This document shows positions 3,061 through 49,660 of a stretch of 64,000 nucleotides of DNA, one piece after another. Below the pieces are notes generated by a model. That model ran no database searches. It saw only the letters and a program-made list of their open reading frames with translations, and had not been told where the DNA came from. This DNA is from Escherichia coli (GTDB lineage: Bacteria; Pseudomonadota; Gammaproteobacteria; Enterobacterales; Enterobacteriaceae), in NCBI RefSeq assembly GCF_044324875.1, contig NZ_CP172185.1; one strand, written 5' to 3'. The position numbers and the translations under genes are program-made. Within the stretch, counting starts at the first letter, position 1. Each line of letters begins with the position of its first letter.

Positions 3061-4281
3061 ATGACACCAGGCGGACAAGCTCAGATAGGTAATGTTGATC
3101 TCGTAAAACAGCTTAACAGCGCGGCGGTTTATCGCCTGATTGACCAGTATGGGCCAATCTCGCGGATTCAGATTGCCGAGCAAAGCCAGCTTGCCCCCGC
3201 CAGCGTAACCAAAATTACGCGTCAGCTTATCGAACGCGGGCTGATCAAAGAAGTTGATCAGCAGGCCTCCACCGGGGGCCGCCGCGCTATCTCTATCGTC
3301 ACCGAAACCCGCAATTTCCACGCAATCGGTGTACGGCTTGGTCGTCACGACGCCACCATTACTCTGTTCGATCTCAGTAGCAAAGTGCTGGCAGAAGAAC
3401 ATTACCCGCTGCCGGAACGTACCCAGCAGACGCTGGAACATGCCCTGCTGAATGCCATTGCTCAGTTTATTGATAGCTACCAGCGCAAGCTGCGCGAGCT
3501 GATTGCTATTTCCGTGATCCTGCCAGGGCTTGTTGACCCGGACAGCGGCAAAATTCATTACATGCCGCATATTCAGGTAGAAAACTGGGGGCTGGTAGAA
3601 GCACTGGAAGAGCGTTTTAAAGTGACCTGTTTTGTCGGCCACGATATCCGTAGTCTGGCGCTGGCAGAGCACTACTTCGGTGCAAGTCAGGATTGCGAAG
3701 ACTCCATTTTAGTGCGTGTCCATCGCGGGACCGGGGCAGGGATTATCTCTAACGGGCGCATTTTTATTGGCCGCAACGGTAACGTCGGTGAAATTGGCCA
3801 TATTCAGGTCGAACCGCTGGGTGAACGCTGCCACTGCGGCAACTTTGGCTGCCTGGAAACTATTGCTGCCAACGCTGCTATTGAACAACGGGTGTTGAAT
3901 CTGTTAAAGCAGGGCTACCAGAGCCGCGTGCCGCTGGACGACTGCACCATAAAAACTATCTGCAAAGCTGCGAACAAAGGCGATAGCCTGGCGTCGGAAG
4001 TGATTGAGTATGTGGGTCGTCATCTGGGCAAAACCATCGCCATTGCGATCAACTTATTTAATCCGCAAAAAATTGTTATTGCCGGTGAAATCACCGAAGC
4101 CGATAAAGTGCTGCTCCCTGCTATTGAAAGCTGCATTAATACCCAGGCGCTGAAGGCGTTTCGTACTAATCTGCCGGTGGTACGTTCTGAGCTGGATCAC
4201 CGCTCGGCAATCGGCGCTTTTGCGCTGGTAAAACGCGCCATGCTCAACGGTATTTTGCTCCAGCATTTGCTGGAAAATTAA
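3061..4281 (+). CDS. nagC: ROK-family transcriptional repressor of nag regulon
   Basis: 406-aa ORF with N-terminal HTH and ROK glucokinase-like domain (CHCGNFGCLE zinc motif); matches NagC. Confidence 0.97.
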   Translation: MTPGGQAQIGNVDLVKQLNSAAVYRLIDQYGPISRIQIAEQSQLAPASVTKITRQLIERGLIKEVDQQASTGGRRAISIVTETRNFHAIGVRLGRHDATITLFDLSSKVLAEEHYPLPERTQQTLEHALLNAIAQFIDSYQRKLRELIAISVILPGLVDPDSGKIHYMPHIQVENWGLVEALEERFKVTCFVGHDIRSLALAEHYFGASQDCEDSILVRVHRGTGAGIISNGRIFIGRNGNVGEIGHIQVEPLGERCHCGNFGCLETIAANAAIEQRVLNLLKQGYQSRVPLDDCTIKTICKAANKGDSLASEVIEYVGRHLGKTIAIAINLFNPQKIVIAGEITEADKVLLPAIESCINTQALKAFRTNLPVVRSELDHRSAIGAFALVKRAMLNGILLQHLLEN

Positions 4282-4328
4282 TGTGCTTTTATAGTGGCGC
4301 TTATTGTTGTCAATATTCTGGGTAGTCC

Positions 4329-5082
4329 ATGACCATTAAAAATGTAATTTGCGATATCGACGGCGTGCTGATGCACGATAACGTCGCCGTACCGGGTGCA
4401 GCGGAATTTTTGCACGGGATTATGGATAAAGGCCTGCCGCTGGTGTTGCTGACCAACTATCCTTCGCAGACCGGGCAAGATCTGGCGAACCGCTTTGCCA
4501 CTGCCGGTGTCGATGTACCTGACAGCGTGTTTTATACCTCTGCGATGGCGACCGCCGATTTCCTGCGTCGCCAGGAAGGCAAGAAAGCGTATGTGGTGGG
4601 CGAAGGCGCACTGATTCATGAACTGTACAAAGCCGGTTTCACTATTACCGATGTGAACCCTGATTTTGTGATTGTTGGCGAAACGCGTTCCTACAAACTG
4701 GGACATGATGCATAAAGCAGCCTATTTCGTCGCTAACGGTGCACGTTTTATCGCCACCAACCCGGACACCCACGGGCGCGGTTTTTATCCGGCGTGTGGT
4801 GCGCTGTGTGCGGGGATCGAAAAAATCTCCGGACGTAAACCGTTCTATGTTGGTAAGCCGAGTCCGTGGATCATCCGCGCAGCATTAAACAAAATGCAGG
4901 CGCATTCGGAAGAAACGGTGATTGTCGGCGATAACCTGCGTACCGATATTCTGGCGGGCTTCCAGGCCGGTCTGGAGACGATTCTGGTACTCTCCGGCGT
5001 TTCGTCGCTCGACGATATCGACAGTATGCCATTCCGCCCCAGCTGGATTTACCCATCGGTCGCCGAAATTGACGTTATCTGA
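4329..5082 (+). pseudogene. nagD: UMP phosphatase NagD/UmpH, interrupted by +1 frameshift (extra A in AAA run at 4696-4698)
   Basis: ORF track splits the gene into 4329..4715 and 4672..5082; total span 754 nt = 753+1; upstream frame reads ...VIVGETRSYKLGHDA* whereas intact NagD as I recall it reads ...VIVGETRSYNWDMMHKAAYF..., and the downstream frame continues NWDMMHKAAYFVANGARF... Confidence 0.85.
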
Positions 5083-5133
5083 ATACCACCCACGTCTGCG
5101 GACGTGGTTGGCTCTGATGACAAGCGCCAAACT

Positions 5134-6442
<1,309 letters not shown>

Positions 6443-6477
6443 GCAGCTCCTGCAATATATTGAATTTTCATGCTTTT

Positions 6478-6512
6478 GTAGGCCGGATAAGGCGTTCACG
6501 CCGCATCCGGCA
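6478..6512. repeat. REP palindromic element (second REP of a BIME-like pair)
   Basis: GTAGGCCGGATAAGGCGTTCACGCCGCATCCGGCA matches REP consensus. Confidence 0.6.
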
Positions 6513-6758
6513 TGAACAAATCGCACTTTGTCAGCAATTTGGCCCCCGTAAAATATAACCATTCAATAAAACCCGCTAAAAATTATCGATTCATCAATAA
6601 ATACATCCTTACACCAGACCTTTTTTCACCAATCGACAATCACCATTACGTTTTTTATTTTTTCACCGCCAAATCGCTTGCGCACAGTGCTGCTTTGCGG
6701 CATTTTTTTAAACAAGCAAACACAACAAGCAACAAATACCAGGTTAACGGAGAAGGTT

Positions 6759-8423
6759 ATGTGTTCAATTTTTGGCGTATTCGATATCAAAACAGACGCA
6801 GTTGAGCTGCGTAAGAAAGCACTCGAGCTGTCACGCCTGATGCGTCATCGTGGCCCGGACTGGTCCGGTATTTATGCCAGCGATAACGCCATTCTCGCCC
6901 ACGAACGTCTGTCCATTGTTGACGTTAACGCGGGGGCGCAACCTCTCTACAACCAACAAAAAACTCATGTGCTGGCAGTAAACGGTGAAATCTACAACCA
7001 CCAGGCATTGCGCGCTGAATATGGCGATCGTTACCAGTTCCAGACCGGGTCTGACTGTGAAGTGATCCTCGCGCTGTATCAGGAAAAAGGGCCGGAATTT
7101 CTCGACGACTTACAGGGCATGTTTGCCTTTGCCCTGTACGACAGCGAAAAAGATGCCTACCTGATTGGTCGCGACCATCTGGGGATCATCCCACTGTATA
7201 TGGGCTATGACGAACATGGTCAGCTGTATGTGGCCTCAGAAATGAAAGCCCTGGTGCCGGTATGCCGCACGATTAAAGAGTTCCCGGCGGGGAGCTATTT
7301 GTGGAGTCAGGACGGCGAAATCCGTTCTTATTATCATCGCGACTGGTTCGACTACGATGCGGTGAAAGATAACGTGACCGACAAAAACGAGCTGCGTCAG
7401 GCACTGGAAGATTCCGTTAAAAGCCATCTGATGTCTGATGTGCCTTACGGTGTGCTGCTATCTGGTGGCCTGGATTCCTCAATCATTTCCGCTATCACCA
7501 AGAAATACGCAGCCCGTCGCGTGGAAGATCAGGAACGCTCTGAAGCCTGGTGGCCGCAGCTGCACTCCTTTGCTGTAGGTCTGCCGGGTTCACCGGATCT
7601 GAAGGCAGCCCAGGAAGTGGCAAACCATCTGGGCACTGTGCATCATGAAATTCACTTCACTGTACAGGAAGGTCTGGACGCCATCCGCGACGTGATTTAC
7701 CACATCGAAACCTATGATGTGACCACTATTCGCGCTTCAACACCGATGTATTTAATGTCGCGTAAGATCAAGGCGATGGGCATTAAAATGGTGCTGTCCG
7801 GTGAAGGATCTGATGAAGTGTTTGGCGGTTATCTTTACTTCCACAAAGCGCCGAATGCCAAAGAACTGCATGAAGAGACGGTGCGTAAACTGCTGGCCCT
7901 GCATATGTATGACTGCGCCCGTGCCAACAAAGCGATGTCAGCCTGGGGCGTGGAAGCACGCGTTCCGTTCCTCGACAAAAAATTCCTCGACGTGGCGATG
8001 CGCATTAACCCACAGGATAAAATGTGCGGTAACGGCAAAATGGAAAAACACATCCTGCGTGAATGTTTTGAAGCGTATCTGCCTGCAAGCGTGGCCTGGC
8101 GGCAGAAAGAGCAGTTCTCCGATGGCGTCGGTTACAGTTGGATCGATACCCTGAAAGAAGTGGCGGCGCAGCAGGTTTCTGATCAACAGCTGGAAACTGC
8201 CCGCTTCCGCTTCCCGTACAACACACCGACCTCAAAAGAAGCGTATCTGTACCGGGAGATCTTTGAAGAACTCTTCCCGCTTCCGAGCGCCGCTGAGTGC
8301 GTGCCGGGCGGCCCGTCCGTCGCGTGTTCTTCCGCTAAAGCGATTGAGTGGGATGAGGCGTTCAAGAAAATGGACGATCCGTCTGGTCGTGCGGTTGGCG
8401 TTCACCAGTCGGCGTATAAGTAA
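6759..8423 (+). CDS. asnB: Asparagine synthetase B (glutamine-hydrolysing)
   Basis: ATG at 6759 after GGAGAAGG RBS; 554 aa MCSIFGVFDIKTDAVELRKKALELSRLMRHRGPDWSG...; the ORF-track start at 6678 is an in-frame upstream extension. Confidence 0.95.
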   Translation: MCSIFGVFDIKTDAVELRKKALELSRLMRHRGPDWSGIYASDNAILAHERLSIVDVNAGAQPLYNQQKTHVLAVNGEIYNHQALRAEYGDRYQFQTGSDCEVILALYQEKGPEFLDDLQGMFAFALYDSEKDAYLIGRDHLGIIPLYMGYDEHGQLYVASEMKALVPVCRTIKEFPAGSYLWSQDGEIRSYYHRDWFDYDAVKDNVTDKNELRQALEDSVKSHLMSDVPYGVLLSGGLDSSIISAITKKYAARRVEDQERSEAWWPQLHSFAVGLPGSPDLKAAQEVANHLGTVHHEIHFTVQEGLDAIRDVIYHIETYDVTTIRASTPMYLMSRKIKAMGIKMVLSGEGSDEVFGGYLYFHKAPNAKELHEETVRKLLALHMYDCARANKAMSAWGVEARVPFLDKKFLDVAMRINPQDKMCGNGKMEKHILRECFEAYLPASVAWRQKEQFSDGVGYSWIDTLKEVAAQQVSDQQLETARFRFPYNTPTSKEAYLYREIFEELFPLPSAAECVPGGPSVACSSAKAIEWDEAFKKMDDPSGRAVGVHQSAYK

Positions 8424-8435
8424 GAAATGCGGTAC

Positions 8436-8463
8436 TGCCCCGGAGAAATCCGGGGCTGTTTTA
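8436..8463. terminator. Bidirectional rho-independent terminator between asnB and convergent 145-aa ORF
   Basis: GCCCCGG-agaaat-CCGGGGC hairpin followed by TGTTTT. Confidence 0.6.
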
Positions 8464-8464
8464 G

Positions 8465-8902
8465 TTATTGAGCTGCTTGTTGATTCTGATATGCAGTAAG
8501 GAAATGTTCCGGGTTTGCCACATCACTGTTTGACAACTCATCACTGTAGGCCACCGACCAGGTCGCCTGCTCATCCGGAATATGCAGGCTGCCATTCCCC
8601 TCTTTCAGGCGTAATAACTCAAAAGATTTGCCCTTAATTACGGCGGTATAGGATTTTTCACCTTCCTGTAATGCTTTCACTTTACAGCGAAAAATATGGC
8701 CATCGATGTCATTATCAACATGCGATACCTGAATGAGGGCTTCATTAGAGGCTTTCGGCCCTATCCGCATCATCCACACCACAGCGCCTTCCTGCCCACG
8801 ATAGCCAAAAACATATTTACCGATTTCCGGTTTGACCGTATCGGCAAACGCAGATTGCATAAGTAATAACGCACCCATCAGCGCCGTCATAAAACGCAGC
8901 AT
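8465..8902 (-). CDS. Hypothetical secreted protein (145 aa, signal peptide, no family recognised)
   Basis: ORF with GAGGGA RBS 5 nt upstream of ATG; N-terminus MLRFMTALMGALLLMQSAFA-DTVK looks like a Sec signal peptide with AFA-D cleavage site; E. coli-like codon usage. Confidence 0.6.
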   Translation of the reverse strand: MLRFMTALMGALLLMQSAFADTVKPEIGKYVFGYRGQEGAVVWMMRIGPKASNEALIQVSHVDNDIDGHIFRCKVKALQEGEKSYTAVIKGKSFELLRLKEGNGSLHIPDEQATWSVAYSDELSNSDVANPEHFLTAYQNQQAAQ

Positions 8903-9165
8903 AGTATTCCCTCAATAAATCGCCTGAAGTGGTAGCAGAGATGCAGGCGTAGCGATCCCTGCCCTGTCCTGTTGCAACGGGCCAGTATTTCATAGATTAA
9001 TTTCCCACCACTATTGTTGAATTCCGAATTTCATCCTGTATGACAAAAGAATGGCTGTAGGGTGGGAAAAAAACACAAAGTAAACAATAATTGACGAATA
9101 TAGCGCCACGCTGTTCGCAACCTAACCAAACAGTCACTTTCGAGCAATTTTCCTTGAAAAAGAGG

Positions 9166-9200
9166 TTGACGCTGCAAGGCTCTATACGCATAATGCGCCC
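9166..9200 (+). promoter_or_regulatory. Sigma70 promoter of tRNA operon (TTGACG -35, 17-bp spacer, CATAAT -10, GC-rich discriminator)
   Basis: TTGACG at 9166-9171, CATAAT at 9189-9194, then GCGCCCCGC discriminator typical of stringently controlled stable-RNA promoters; about 40 bp upstream of first tRNA. Confidence 0.6.
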
Positions 9201-9235
9201 CGCAACGCCGATAAGGTATCGCGAAAAAAAAAGAT

Positions 9236-11193: not shown

Positions 11194-12618
11194 ATGACCA
11201 AAAAACTCCATATTAAAACCTGGGGCTGTCAGATGAACGAGTACGATTCATCGAAGATGGCCGATCTGCTGGATGCCACCCACGGCTATCAACTGACCGA
11301 CGTGGCGGAAGAAGCGGATGTGCTGCTGCTGAACACCTGCTCAATCCGCGAGAAGGCTCAGGAAAAAGTCTTCCATCAGTTGGGTCGCTGGAAACTGTTA
11401 AAAGAGAAGAATCCAGACCTGATTATCGGCGTCGGCGGCTGCGTGGCATCGCAAGAAGGCGAGCACATTCGCCAGCGCGCCCACTATGTCGATATTATTT
11501 TTGGGCCGCAAACGCTGCACCGCCTGCCGGAGATGATCAACTCCGTGCGCGGCGACCGCAGCCCGGTTGTAGATATCAGCTTCCCGGAAATCGAGAAGTT
11601 TGACCGTCTGCCGGAACCGCGTGCCGAAGGGCCGACCGCGTTTGTCTCCATCATGGAAGGCTGCAATAAATATTGCACCTACTGCGTAGTGCCTTACACC
11701 CGTGGTGAAGAGGTAAGCCGTCCGTCCGACGATATTCTGTTTGAGATTGCCCAACTTGCTGCTCAGGGCGTGCGTGAAGTTAACCTGCTCGGCCAGAACG
11801 TGAACGCCTGGCGCGGTGAGAACTACGACGGCACCACCGGATCGTTTGCCGATCTACTGCGTCTGGTTGCTGCGATCGACGGGATCGATCGTATTCGCTT
11901 TACCACCAGCCATCCGATCGAATTCACCGACGATATCATCGAAGTGTACCGCGACACGCCGGAGCTGGTGAGCTTCCTGCATCTGCCGGTACAGAGCGGT
12001 TCCGATCGCATTCTGAACCTGATGGGACGTACCCATACAGCGCTGGAGTACAAAGCGATCATCCGTAAACTGCGTGCGGCGCGTCCGGATATTCAGATCA
12101 GTTCTGACTTCATCGTTGGCTTCCCTGGTGAAACCACCGAAGACTTCGAGAAAACGATGAAGCTGATTGCCGACGTCAATTTCGACATGAGCTACAGCTT
12201 TATCTTCTCTGCACGTCCGGGTACGCCAGCCGCCGATATGGTTGATGATGTTCCGGAAGAAGAGAAGAAGCAGCGTCTGTATATTCTACAAGAACGTATT
12301 AATCAGCAAGCGATGGCATGGAGCCGCCGGATGCTCGGCACCACCCAGCGTATTCTGGTAGAAGGTACATCGCGTAAGAGCATCATGGAGCTTTCCGGTC
12401 GCACTGAAAATAACCGCGTGGTCAACTTCGAGGGCACACCGGATATGATCGGTAAATTCGTCGATGTAGAAATTACCGACGTCTACCCGAACTCTCTGCG
12501 CGGTAAAGTGGTGCGAACTGAAGATGAAATGGGTCTGCGCGTGGCAGAAACACCGGAATCGGTGATTGCCCGTACCCGCAAAGAAAACGACCTTGGCGTG
12601 GGTTATTATCAGCCGTAA
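11194..12618 (+). CDS. miaB: tRNA-i6A37 methylthiotransferase (radical SAM)
   Basis: 474 aa [26 protein letters not shown]...; CNKYCTYC radical-SAM cysteine motif. Confidence 0.96.
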
Positions 12619-12624
12619 TTCTCA

Positions 12625-12655
12625 GGCCCGCCGTTCCGGTGGGCCTTGTTTTTTC
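12625..12655 (+). terminator. Rho-independent terminator after miaB
   Basis: AGGCCCGCCG-ttcc-GGTGGGCCT hairpin followed by TGTTTTTT. Confidence 0.7.
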
Positions 12656-12770
12656 TCTCTTTATCCCCATCTTTATCGCAATGCTTGCGCCTTTTTCCTG
12701 TGGCGTGAATAATTTCCTTATAGGCCGGTGAATGTTCAGCTTCCGGCGGCATACAGATAAGAGGAACGGT

Positions 12771-13811
12771 TTGAACATAGACACTCGCGAAATCACCCTG
12801 GAGCCAGCAGACAACGCGCGTCTGTTGAGCCTGTGCGGCCCGTTTGATGACAACATCAAACAACTCGAACGCCGTCTCGGCATCGAGATCAATCGCCGCG
12901 ATAACCACTTTAAACTGACCGGCCGTCCGATTTGCGTCACCGCTGCGGCAGACATTCTGCGTAGCCTGTATGTCGATACCGCCCCGATGCGCGGTCAGAT
13001 TCAGGATATTGAACCGGAACAGATCCACCTTGCGATTAAAGAAGCGCGGGTACTGGAGCAAAGCGCGGAGAGCGTGCCGGAGTACGGCAAAGCGGTCAAT
13101 ATCAAGACCAAACGCGGCGTAATCAAACCGCGCACGCCAAACCAGGCGCAGTACATTGCCAATATTCTCGACCATGACATCACCTTCGGCGTTGGCCCGG
13201 CGGGTACGGGTAAAACCTACCTGGCAGTGGCTGCGGCAGTTGATGCCCTGGAGCGTCAGGAAATTCGCCGTATTCTGCTGACTCGTCCGGCGGTAGAAGC
13301 CGGTGAGAAACTGGGCTTCCTGCCTGGCGATTTAAGCCAGAAAGTAGACCCGTATTTGCGCCCGCTGTACGACGCGCTGTTTGAAATGCTGGGCTTTGAG
13401 AAAGTCGAGAAACTGATTGAGCGCAACGTTATTGAAGTCGCGCCGCTGGCCTATATGCGTGGCCGTACGCTGAACGACGCGTTTATCATTCTCGATGAGA
13501 GCCAGAACACTACCATCGAACAGATGAAGATGTTCCTGACCCGTATCGGTTTTAACTCAAAAGCGGTTATCACCGGCGACGTCACGCAGATCGACCTGCC
13601 GCGTAATACCAAGTCAGGCTTACGTCATGCCATCGAAGTGCTGGCTGACGTCGAAGAGATCAGCTTTAACTTCTTCCACAGCGAAGACGTGGTTCGTCAC
13701 CCGGTGGTGGCGCGTATCGTTAACGCTTATGAAGCCTGGGAAGAAGCAGAACAAAAACGTAAAGCGGCGCTGGCAGCAGAACGCAAGCGCGAAGAACAGG
13801 AACAAAAATGA
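12771..13811 (+). CDS. ybeZ: PhoH-like ATPase
   Basis: 346 aa from TTG start at 12771 ([19 protein letters not shown]...), Walker A GPAGTGKT; ORF-track start 12732 is an upstream extension. Confidence 0.9.
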
Positions 13812-14275
13812 GTCAGGTGATCCTCGATTTACAACTGGCATGTGAAGATAATTCCGGGTTACCGGAAGAGAGCCAGTTTCAGACATGGCTGAATGCGGTG
13901 ATCCCGCAGTTTCAGGAAGAATCGGAAGTGACGATTCGCGTGGTCGATACCGCCGAAAGCCACAGTCTGAATCTGACCTATCGTGGTAAGGATAAGCCGA
14001 CCAACGTGCTCTCCTTCCCGTTTGAAGTACCGCCTGGCATGGAAATGTCGCTACTGGGCGATCTGGTTATCTGCCGTCAGGTGGTTGAGAAGGAAGCACA
14101 GGAGCAAGGCAAACCACTGGAGGCGCACTGGGCGCATATGGTGGTGCACGGCAGTCTGCATTTGTTAGGTTACGATCACATCGAAGATGACGAAGCAGAA
14201 GAAATGGAAGCCCTCGAAACAGAGATTATGCTTGCTCTGGGCTATGAGGATCCGTACATTGCCGAGAAAGAATAA
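13808..14275 (+). CDS. ybeY: Endoribonuclease YbeY (16S rRNA maturation)
   Basis: 155 aa [14 protein letters not shown]...; [11 protein letters not shown] zinc-binding motif; ATGA overlap with ybeZ stop. Confidence 0.96.
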
Positions 14276-46731: not shown

Positions 46732-47697
46732 ATGAGTAAACCCATTGTGATGGAACGCGGTGTTAAATACCGCGATGCCGATAAGATGGCCCTTATCCCG
46801 GTTAAAAACGTGGCAACAGAGCGCGAAGCCCTGCTGCGCAAGCCGGAATGGATGAAAATCAAGCTTCCAGCGGACTCTACACGTATCCAGGGCATCAAAG
46901 CCGCAATGCGCAAAAATGGCCTGCATTCTGTCTGCGAGGAAGCCTCCTGCCCTAACCTGGCGGAATGCTTCAACCACGGCACAGCAACGTTTATGATCCT
47001 CGGCGCTATTTGTACCCGCCGTTGTCCGTTCTGTGACGTTGCCCACGGTCGCCCGGTAGCTCCGGATGCCAATGAACCAGTGAAACTGGCGCAGACCATT
47101 GCCGATATGGCGCTGCGTTATGTGGTTATCACCTCCGTTGACCGTGATGACCTGCGCGATGGCGGTGCCCAGCACTTTGCGGATTGCATTACTGCCATTC
47201 GGGAAAAAAGCCCGCAAATCAAAATTGAAACTCTGGTGCCGGATTTCCGCGGTCGTATGGATCGTGCTCTGGATATTCTGACCGCCACACCACCAGATGT
47301 GTTCAACCATAACCTGGAAAACGTACCGCGTATTTACCGTCAGGTACGGCCTGGTGCAGATTACAACTGGTCGCTGAAGCTGCTGGAACGCTTTAAAGAA
47401 GCGCATCCGGAAATCCCGACCAAGTCTGGTCTGATGGTGGGTCTGGGTGAAACCAATGAAGAAATTATTGAGGTAATGCGCGACCTGCGCCGTCATGGTG
47501 TGACGATGTTAACGCTGGGGCAATATTTGCAGCCAAGCCGCCATCACCTGCCGGTTCAACGTTACGTTAGCCCGGATGAGTTCGACGAAATGAAAGCCGA
47601 AGCGCTGGCGATGGGCTTTACCCATGCTGCATGCGGTCCGTTTGTCCGCTCGTCTTACCACGCCGATTTGCAGGCGAAAGGGATGGAAGTTAAGTAA
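46732..47697 (+). CDS. lipA: Lipoyl synthase (radical SAM)
   Basis: 321 aa [26 protein letters not shown]...; cysteine motifs CEEASCPN and CTRRCPFC. Confidence 0.96.
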
Positions 47698-47725
47698 TCC
47701 TGTAATAATTACTTACATCTGTCTG

Positions 47726-47758
47726 ATAAAAAACCCGCTTTTTGAAGCGGGTTTTTTG
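47726..47758. terminator. Bidirectional rho-independent terminator between lipA and tatE
   Basis: AAAAAACCCGC-tttttgaa-GCGGGTTTTTT; A/T tracts on both sides. Confidence 0.8.
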
Positions 47759-47797
47759 TATCGAACAAGATATTGAGGGAGCGTCCTGCTCGCCACG

Positions 47798-48001
47798 TCA
47801 CTCTTTATGAGAGAGCTTTTCAGCCTGAAGATCAACGTCTGCGCCTTTTTTCGCCGCAGCATCGTCATCATTCATCGCCTTCTTGAACCCTTTAATGGCC
47901 GCTCCAAGGTCTCCGCCCAGCGTACGTAACTTCTTAGTCCCAAACAGCAGAACGACCAGCGCCGCAACTACCAGCAGTTTGGTAATACTAATCTCACCCA
48001 T
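47798..48001 (-). CDS. tatE: Twin-arginine translocase subunit TatE
   Basis: 67 aa [43 protein letters not shown]... Confidence 0.95.
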
Positions 48002-48129: not shown

Positions 48130-48924
48130 TCATAATAATTGCGGCGGCGCAAAGCGACGGTTGTTTAAAACGGGAAGTTGCGCGCGCACCTGACGCACAC
48201 GTTCGGGCGTCACTTCCGCCATAATGAGTGCAGGCATTTCTGACGCTGCCGCAATGGTGACGCCAAAGGGATCTATAATCCGGCTTTGCCCGATATTTTT
48301 GTTCCCGCACTCCCCCGCCGCCACCATATAACAGGTGGTATCCAGCGCACGAGCGGCAAGCAACGTTGACCAGTGATGCTCCTTGAGCGGCCCACGAACC
48401 CAGGCGGCAGGAAGTACCAGGATTTCAGCTCCCTGTAATGCCTGTGCCAGCGCCAGCTCTGGAAAGCGTAAGTCATAACAGGTCATCAGACCGACCTTCA
48501 TCCCTTCCACCTCCAGTAACGGAGCTATTTCATTACCAGCATCAACATGGCGTGATTCCTGAATGGCAAATGCATCATAGAGATGCAGTTTGGCATAACG
48601 GGCGACGATGTTTCCTGCCTGTAGCGCCACCAGCATATTCCATGCGCGCCCCGGTGTTGAAGGAACATGAATCGTCAGAATTGTCGTCATCATGTTACGT
48701 TTACTTTCTCGACGTAAACGTCCGAGGAATTCGCCTTCCAGCAGCTGTGCTGATTTAACCGATAGATCTGCATCATGATCATCACGCGCCAACAATGCTT
48801 CCGGCAGGACAAACAGCGAAACGTCGTTTTCCGCCGCCTGCGCCATCAACGAGGCACAAATCTCAGCGTTCTTTTCCCACACAGATGTAACAGCAAACTG
48901 TCCTGCGGCAACCAGCATTGCCAC
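48130..48924 (-). CDS. ybeM: C-N hydrolase (nitrilase superfamily) YbeM, apparently intact here
   Basis: Uninterrupted 264-aa [35 protein letters not shown]...; C-N hydrolase E-K-C signature context [12 protein letters not shown]. Confidence 0.85.
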
Positions 48925-49013
48925 CTCCTCCTGTCAGAGTCGTAAAATTCGCCAACGGCGATTATTCGGCGTTACACTTATCACTCATACAAATCAAATA
49001 GCAGGATTTTGCA

Positions 49014-49397
49014 GTGTTACAACTTCTTTTAGCAGTTTTTATTGGCGGTGGTACGGGAAGCGTGGCGAGATGGCTGTTAAGTATGCGATTTAACCCGCTG
49101 CATCAGGCGATTCCGTTGGGGACGCTGGCAGCAAACCTGATTGGGGCATTCATCATAGGAATGGGATTCGCCTGGTTTAGCAGGATGACGAACATTGATC
49201 CAGTGTGGAAAGTATTAATCACCACCGGATTTTGTGGCGGTCTAACAACCTTCTCAACATTTTCGGCAGAAGTGGTGTTTTTGTTACAAGAGGGCCGCTT
49301 TGGCTGGGCGTTACTGAACGTTTTCGTCAACCTTCTGGGGTCTTTTGCCATGACCGCACTGGCTTTCGGGCTGTTTTCCGCCTCAACCGCACACTAA
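49014..49397 (+). CDS. crcB: Fluoride ion channel CrcB/FluC
   Basis: 127 aa [24 protein letters not shown]...[13 protein letters not shown]. Confidence 0.95.
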
Positions 49398-49402
49398 AGA
49401 CC

Positions 49403-49432
49403 AAAAAAAACCCGCTGATTAAGCGGGTTTTG
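49403..49432. terminator. Bidirectional rho-independent terminator between crcB and cspE
   Basis: AAAAAAAACCCGC-tgattaa-GCGGGTTTT. Confidence 0.8.
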
Positions 49433-49450
49433 AATTCTTGCTGACGTATC

Positions 49451-49660
49451 TTACAGAGCGATTACGTTTGCAGCAGAAGGGCCTTTGGCACCGTTAGTGA
49501 TTTCGAACTCTACGCGCTGACCTTCAGCAAGAGTTTTAAAACCATTAGTCTGGATTGCAGAGAAGTGTACGAACACGTCTTTGCTGCCGTCTTCCGGAGT
49601 AATGAAACCGAATCCTTTGGACTCATTAAACCACTTAACGTTACCTTTAATCTTAGACAT
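49451..49660 (-). CDS. cspE: Cold-shock-domain protein CspE
   Basis: 69 aa [37 protein letters not shown]...; ORF-track 97-aa version is an upstream extension. Confidence 0.95.

Follow-up and report, generated by a model that had tools for sequence, protein, structure and literature searches.

An intact and common allele of ybeM, annotated as a deaminated glutathione amidase gene, in Escherichia coli

The stretch of E. coli DNA analysed here—64,000 nucleotides, hereafter the window—carries on its minus strand a ybeM gene free of frameshift, premature stop and insertion, which is very probably the intact ancestral E. coli allele, coding for a nitrilase-superfamily amidase (Nit1 branch) of 262 amino acids that is annotated as deaminated glutathione amidase. 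The gene is known, and this allele of it is common and has been annotated before, so that the reading is correct but ordinary. Its meaning concerns rather the reference strain: K-12 is unrepresentative at ybeM, as it carries a minority broken allele whereas most E. coli have an intact copy. For studies on the disposal of deaminated glutathione in E. coli, K-12 is thus unfit as a wild type; besides, the frameshift itself could serve as a lineage marker.

Reading frame, leader and surroundings of ybeM

The listing of open reading frames of the window gives an uninterrupted minus-strand ORF at 48130..48924, of 264 amino acids when read from a GTG. An ATG lies two codons downstream, at 48918, and a GGAGG core (48928..48924, read from the sequence) stands 5 nt upstream of this ATG, within the run AGGAGGAGG, a run that the GTG itself (48924..48922) overlaps. 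In the closest complete genome the orthologous coding sequence is annotated by RefSeq with 789 bp, that is 262 amino acids and a stop. Because of the Shine-Dalgarno spacing and of this annotation we dropped the GTG start in favour of the ATG, and the product is most likely of 262 amino acids, encoded by 48130..48918. The sequence-only reading had described a continuous ORF of 264 amino acids: the continuity and the exact coordinates hold, the length has to be shortened by two residues since the ATG is the likelier start. The features of the gene and of its immediate neighbours are as follows.

48130..48918, minus strand: coding sequence of ybeM, ATG start, 262 amino acids and stop (RefSeq 789-bp coding sequence in the closest genome, Pfam, NCBIfam)
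48919..48924, minus strand: codons GTG GCA, an in-frame extra pair giving the 264-amino-acid ORF; probably untranslated leader
48924..48932, minus strand: Shine-Dalgarno run AGGAGGAGG, with an extra AGG at 48930-48932 compared with AGGAGG in K-12 (alignment with K-12)
48799..48801, minus strand: codon GAA of Glu40, opposite Glu54 of NitFhit; kept in all full-length orthologs aligned
48719..48719, minus strand: G of codon 67 (Arg67), deleted in MG1655; GGACGTTTACG in the window against GGACTTTACG in K-12
48589..48591, minus strand: codon AAA of Lys110, opposite Lys127 of NitFhit; invariant in the orthologs aligned
48478..48480, minus strand: codon TGT of Cys147, the catalytic nucleophile, opposite Cys169 of NitFhit; invariant in the orthologs aligned
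46732..47697, plus strand: lipA (ORF listing)
47798..48001, minus strand: tatE (ORF listing)
49014..49397, plus strand: crcB (ORF listing), with cspE and pagP next

The exact 56-mer that holds the Shine-Dalgarno run of the window is found in 846 of 5,421 complete E. coli genomes (~16%), while 4,570 of them match it at 90–95% identity, with three bases fewer in every match listed in that band. This AGG expansion might tune the expression of the intact allele. A simple consensus scan, which is insensitive, detected no sigma-70-like promoter in the 95-bp spacer between crcB and ybeM. A fluoride riboswitch overlapping the 5' end of ybeM was considered and dropped, as Rfam—fluoride riboswitch included—has no match at E<=0.01 in this spacer (window 48925-49013). 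At the other end of the gene, a terminator-like hairpin overlaps the stop codon; it is weak and within chance expectation according to the scan.

The position of ybeM between crcB and tatE is the orthologous one in Enterobacteriaceae, and the gene order lipA, tatE, ybeM, crcB, cspE, pagP is that of K-12 MG1655, of an O169:H41 strain and of BL21(DE3). Over a 22-kb stretch around ybeM the identity to E. coli chromosomes reaches 99.5%, which makes the window a piece of ordinary core chromosome of this species. By ChIP, binding of NsrR was detected near ybeM in CFT073 and K-12 (PMC5320621).

Some observations concern the neighbours only. Rfam reports a cspA thermoregulator at window 49403-49600 (minus strand), over cspE and its terminator, with 99.2 bits for a gathering score of 78; the match is truncated by the edge of the range searched and is expected for an mRNA of the cspA family. 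Between the convergent lipA and tatE, the hairpin AAAAAACCCGCTTTTTGAAGCGGGTTTTTT (window 47690-47763) is probably a bidirectional terminator; in Rfam it stays below threshold, with 31 bits for STnc50 (gathering score 55) and 27 for Leu_leader (gathering score 50). In BL21(DE3) (NC_012971.2), about 17–25 kb from ybeM, three pseudogenes stand at locus positions 5934-6911, 7779-9229 and 12096-14267: ybeQ is interrupted by an internal stop codon, djlC is frameshifted, and IS150 splits gltL. None of the three is related to the ybeM finding.

The K-12 frameshift and its distribution in E. coli

The ybeM of MG1655 (b4581) is an annotated pseudogene of 788 bp, compared with 789 bp in intact strains. 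Aligning the window with K-12 and with the closest genome places the missing base at the G of codon 67. In the original frame, K-12 meets stop codons about 10 codons past the deletion, and the rest of the domain, ~195 residues, can still be read without interruption in another frame. With the missing base put back, K-12 and the window differ in their proteins by three residues only (A33V, A37V and R124H); the lesion is therefore recent. The statement, in the sequence-only reading, that ybeM is interrupted in K-12 is thus borne out, down to the one-base deletion that makes K-12 different from the window in both length and frame.

On the side of the outgroups, orthologs of 262 amino acids exist in E. 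fergusonii (83% identity), in several Citrobacter species (78–84%), in Leclercia, Kosakonia and Enterobacter (73–76%) and in Salmonella enterica (71–74%). The window protein aligns with the 262-amino-acid orthologs of Enterobacteriaceae without a single gap, and the catalytic triad is kept in all those aligned. These full-length outgroup orthologs indicate that the intact form of ybeM is ancestral, in agreement with what had been proposed from the sequence; that this ancestral allele is also functional is a prediction. The one-base deletion of K-12 is conversely derived, and inactivating.

How frequent the lesion is was surveyed with a probe of 61 K-12 bases, the deletion at its centre, compared with the complete E. 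coli genomes, a collection to which the strain of the window itself does not belong. The gene is found in 5,424 of 5,426 genomes. The K-12 61-mer is matched at >=99% in 860 of these 5,424, and the ten matches listed in that band are all 100% identical to the probe. Another 4,562 genomes match it at 95–99%; all those listed have one base more, apart from H100, whose alignment is trimmed at the start of the query. The K-12 frameshift thus affects about 16% of the complete E. coli genomes, and about 84% show no lesion at this position. As most E. coli are intact there, the presence of the intact gene is not noteworthy in itself.

Of the ten exact matches listed, eight come from human, pig or environmental sources. 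Most carriers of the frameshift are not laboratory derivatives of K-12, whose lesion is a polymorphism of natural lineages. We rejected the idea of an artefact of the laboratory or of sequencing, given the identical 61-mer in 860 genomes, wild isolates included. We checked the annotation of one carrier, strain 300709 from a human stool in Mozambique: at NZ_CP025903.1, locus 833-1620, RefSeq marks ybeM as ‘frameshifted’.

The gene was also broken in another way. In E. coli O166:H15 JNE21-003 (NZ_AP041809.1, locus 3096-6013) it is interrupted by the IS21-like element ISEc62 (istA/istB), which leaves a truncated coding sequence of 241 amino acids and a C-terminal remnant; the window has no such element. 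Since the K-12-type frameshift reaches ~16% of the genomes and since an independent IS insertion exists, one may think of a lineage-specific selection on the loss of ybeM in place of a neutral loss, with the Shine-Dalgarno AGG adjusting the expression of the intact allele; we regard this scenario as improbable. Public protein sets moreover contain truncated forms of E. coli YbeM in large clusters: P0058 (215 aa, 537 sequences), P0060 (214 aa, 945) and P0073 (205 aa, 343). P0058 is a C-terminal YbeM fragment headed by four unrelated residues, the kind of product that gene calling would yield from a frameshifted allele, and P0073, which bears the name ‘hydrolase, partial’, corresponds to an N-terminal part.

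Family, catalytic residues and predicted function

The product matches the Pfam CN_hydrolase domain (PF00795) at 141.4 bits for a cutoff of 23.2 (E=4.3e-41), from residue 5 to 247 and over profile positions 2-255 of 256; as the match spans the whole domain at such an E-value, ybeM is not a chance ORF. The NCBIfam model for deaminated glutathione amidase, NF033621, gives 451.5 bits for a curated cutoff of 355, over profile positions 2-260 of 260. With the remaining nitrilase-family models of NCBIfam the protein stays far under each cutoff, e.g. 61.5 bits for 249 with the YafV-type amidohydrolase (NF007757) and 82.7 for 500 with the Yersinia-type deaminated glutathione (dGSH) amidase (NF043013). 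Both the Pfam and the NF033621 scores agree with the assignment made earlier from the letters alone, a nitrilase-superfamily protein resembling deaminated-glutathione amidase. Among solved structures, the best HMMER relatives are NitFhit (1.7e-29) and yeast Nit2 (1.1e-26), and mouse Nit2 (4.4e-22) and yeast Nit3 (6.4e-20) come behind these Nit1-type structures. The homology to solved members over the whole domain implies an alpha-beta-beta-alpha sandwich fold.

The catalytic residues were located on the printed HMMER alignment to the NitFhit of C. elegans (1EMS), by counting positions in the 262-amino-acid protein. The catalytic triad of NitFhit is reported to be Glu54, Lys127 and Cys169 (Pace et al. 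2000). Opposite to them stand Glu40, Lys110 and Cys147, so that the Glu-Lys-Cys triad, whose absence would have contradicted the initial assignment, is present. The three residues are kept in 10 of 10 full-length orthologs from other Enterobacteriaceae. Cys147 falls opposite the very site where the yeast Nit2 chains differ, with a Cys in 4H5U but a Ser in 4HGD.

As to the allele itself, its product has the very sequence of WP_001305561.1. It belongs to a protein cluster of 3,131 members, and exactly this protein is recorded from no fewer than 1,000 public contigs, where it is called deaminated glutathione amidase. Compared with the closest complete genome, ybeM shows two nucleotide differences, both synonymous. 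Residue 124 is His in the window and Arg in BL21 and K-12, in a column that is variable among orthologs.

Nit1 is an amidase acting on deaminated glutathione, with a role in metabolite repair, and is present in many bacteria; deaminated glutathione is a product of side reactions of transaminases, and its hydrolysis lets 2-oxoglutarate, cysteine and glycine be recovered (PMC7041631). According to the chemistry of the superfamily, Cys147 would attack the amide that joins the 2-oxoglutaryl group to Cys-Gly, Glu40 acting as general base and Lys110 stabilising the tetrahedral intermediate, or oxyanion. Cys-Gly would be released, and the thioester acyl-enzyme then hydrolysed to 2-oxoglutarate. YbeM would in this way be an enzyme of metabolite repair or salvage. 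Its expression, catalytic activity and substrate are here predicted. An incidental mention in the literature reports that over-expressed sub-fragments of ybeM lead to filamentation.

The name of the enzyme might nevertheless be over-propagated, YbeM being an active amidase of the superfamily whose true substrate is some other amide of a 2-oxoacid, or else an N-acyl compound. We find this quite unlikely. Specificity is certainly unreadable from sequence in the nitrilase superfamily, and the E-values for Nit1-type structures (1e-29 to 1e-25) are near those for Nit2/Nit3-type ones (4e-22, 6e-20); on the other hand the cutoff of NF033621 is exceeded by almost 100 bits. The poor score with the Yersinia-type model, which may be put forward as well, implies that bacterial dGSH amidases do not form one tight family. 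Besides, the YbeM of E. coli B/BL21, identical to that of the window at 261 of 262 positions, was reportedly assayed on deaminated glutathione. A separate omega-amidase, YafV, is moreover the 2-oxoglutaramate amidase of E. coli (PMC8711792), and the YafV-type model remains far under its cutoff on the protein of the window.

It is still harder to believe that ybeM is intact in frame yet functionally dead, silent or decaying through missense or regulatory changes. Its loss is tolerated, as testified by the ~16% of genomes with the exact K-12 frameshift and by the IS21-family insertion in another strain; but the window protein is that of a very common RefSeq entry, its conserved and catalytic residues are all intact, and the two nucleotides that set the gene apart from that of the closest complete genome leave every residue unchanged. 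A regulatory defect could be sought in the extra AGG, which could alter translation, or in the spacer with crcB, where the scan gave no consensus promoter; however the same Shine-Dalgarno allele is shared by 846 genomes, and the scan was too simple to be sensitive. The dispensability of Nit1, whose loss does no harm in mice, yeast, cell lines or Arabidopsis (PMC7041631), also speaks for such a decay. Against these two alternatives, we retain an intact allele encoding a Nit1-type amidase.

Comparison with known systems

The closest known system is E. coli YbeM as already annotated (WP_001305561.1; in BL21(DE3), WP_000959109.1; family NF033621): the sequence is the same, or the same at 261 of 262 positions, within the same neighbourhood crcB / ybeM / tatE / lipA. 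The BL21(DE3) gene is intact and codes for 262 amino acids; its product, UniProt A0A140NCB4, differs in nothing of substance from that of the window, which has His124 in place of Arg124. The window further shows the two synonymous changes, and the extra AGG of its Shine-Dalgarno run is common to ~16% of the genomes. The ybeM of K-12 MG1655 (b4581) occupies the same locus with 97.8% nucleotide identity; the G that it lacks in codon 67 shifts its frame, whereas the window reads through.

Further away, the eukaryotic Nit1 proteins—mammalian Nit1, yeast Nit2 (4H5U/4HGD) and NitFhit (1EMS)—share with the YbeM of the window the CN_hydrolase domain and the Glu-Lys-Cys triad. The sequences are nevertheless distant, the likeness being seen at the level of HMMER alignments, and the bacterial protein is shorter, devoid of the yeast Nit2 insertions (which appear as alignment gaps) and of the Fhit fusion. 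YafV, the Nit2-type omega-amidase, belongs to the same superfamily with the same catalytic chemistry as YbeM, but is a different paralog acting on a different substrate, as reflected by the 61.5 bits, for 249 needed, that the window protein obtains with NF007757.
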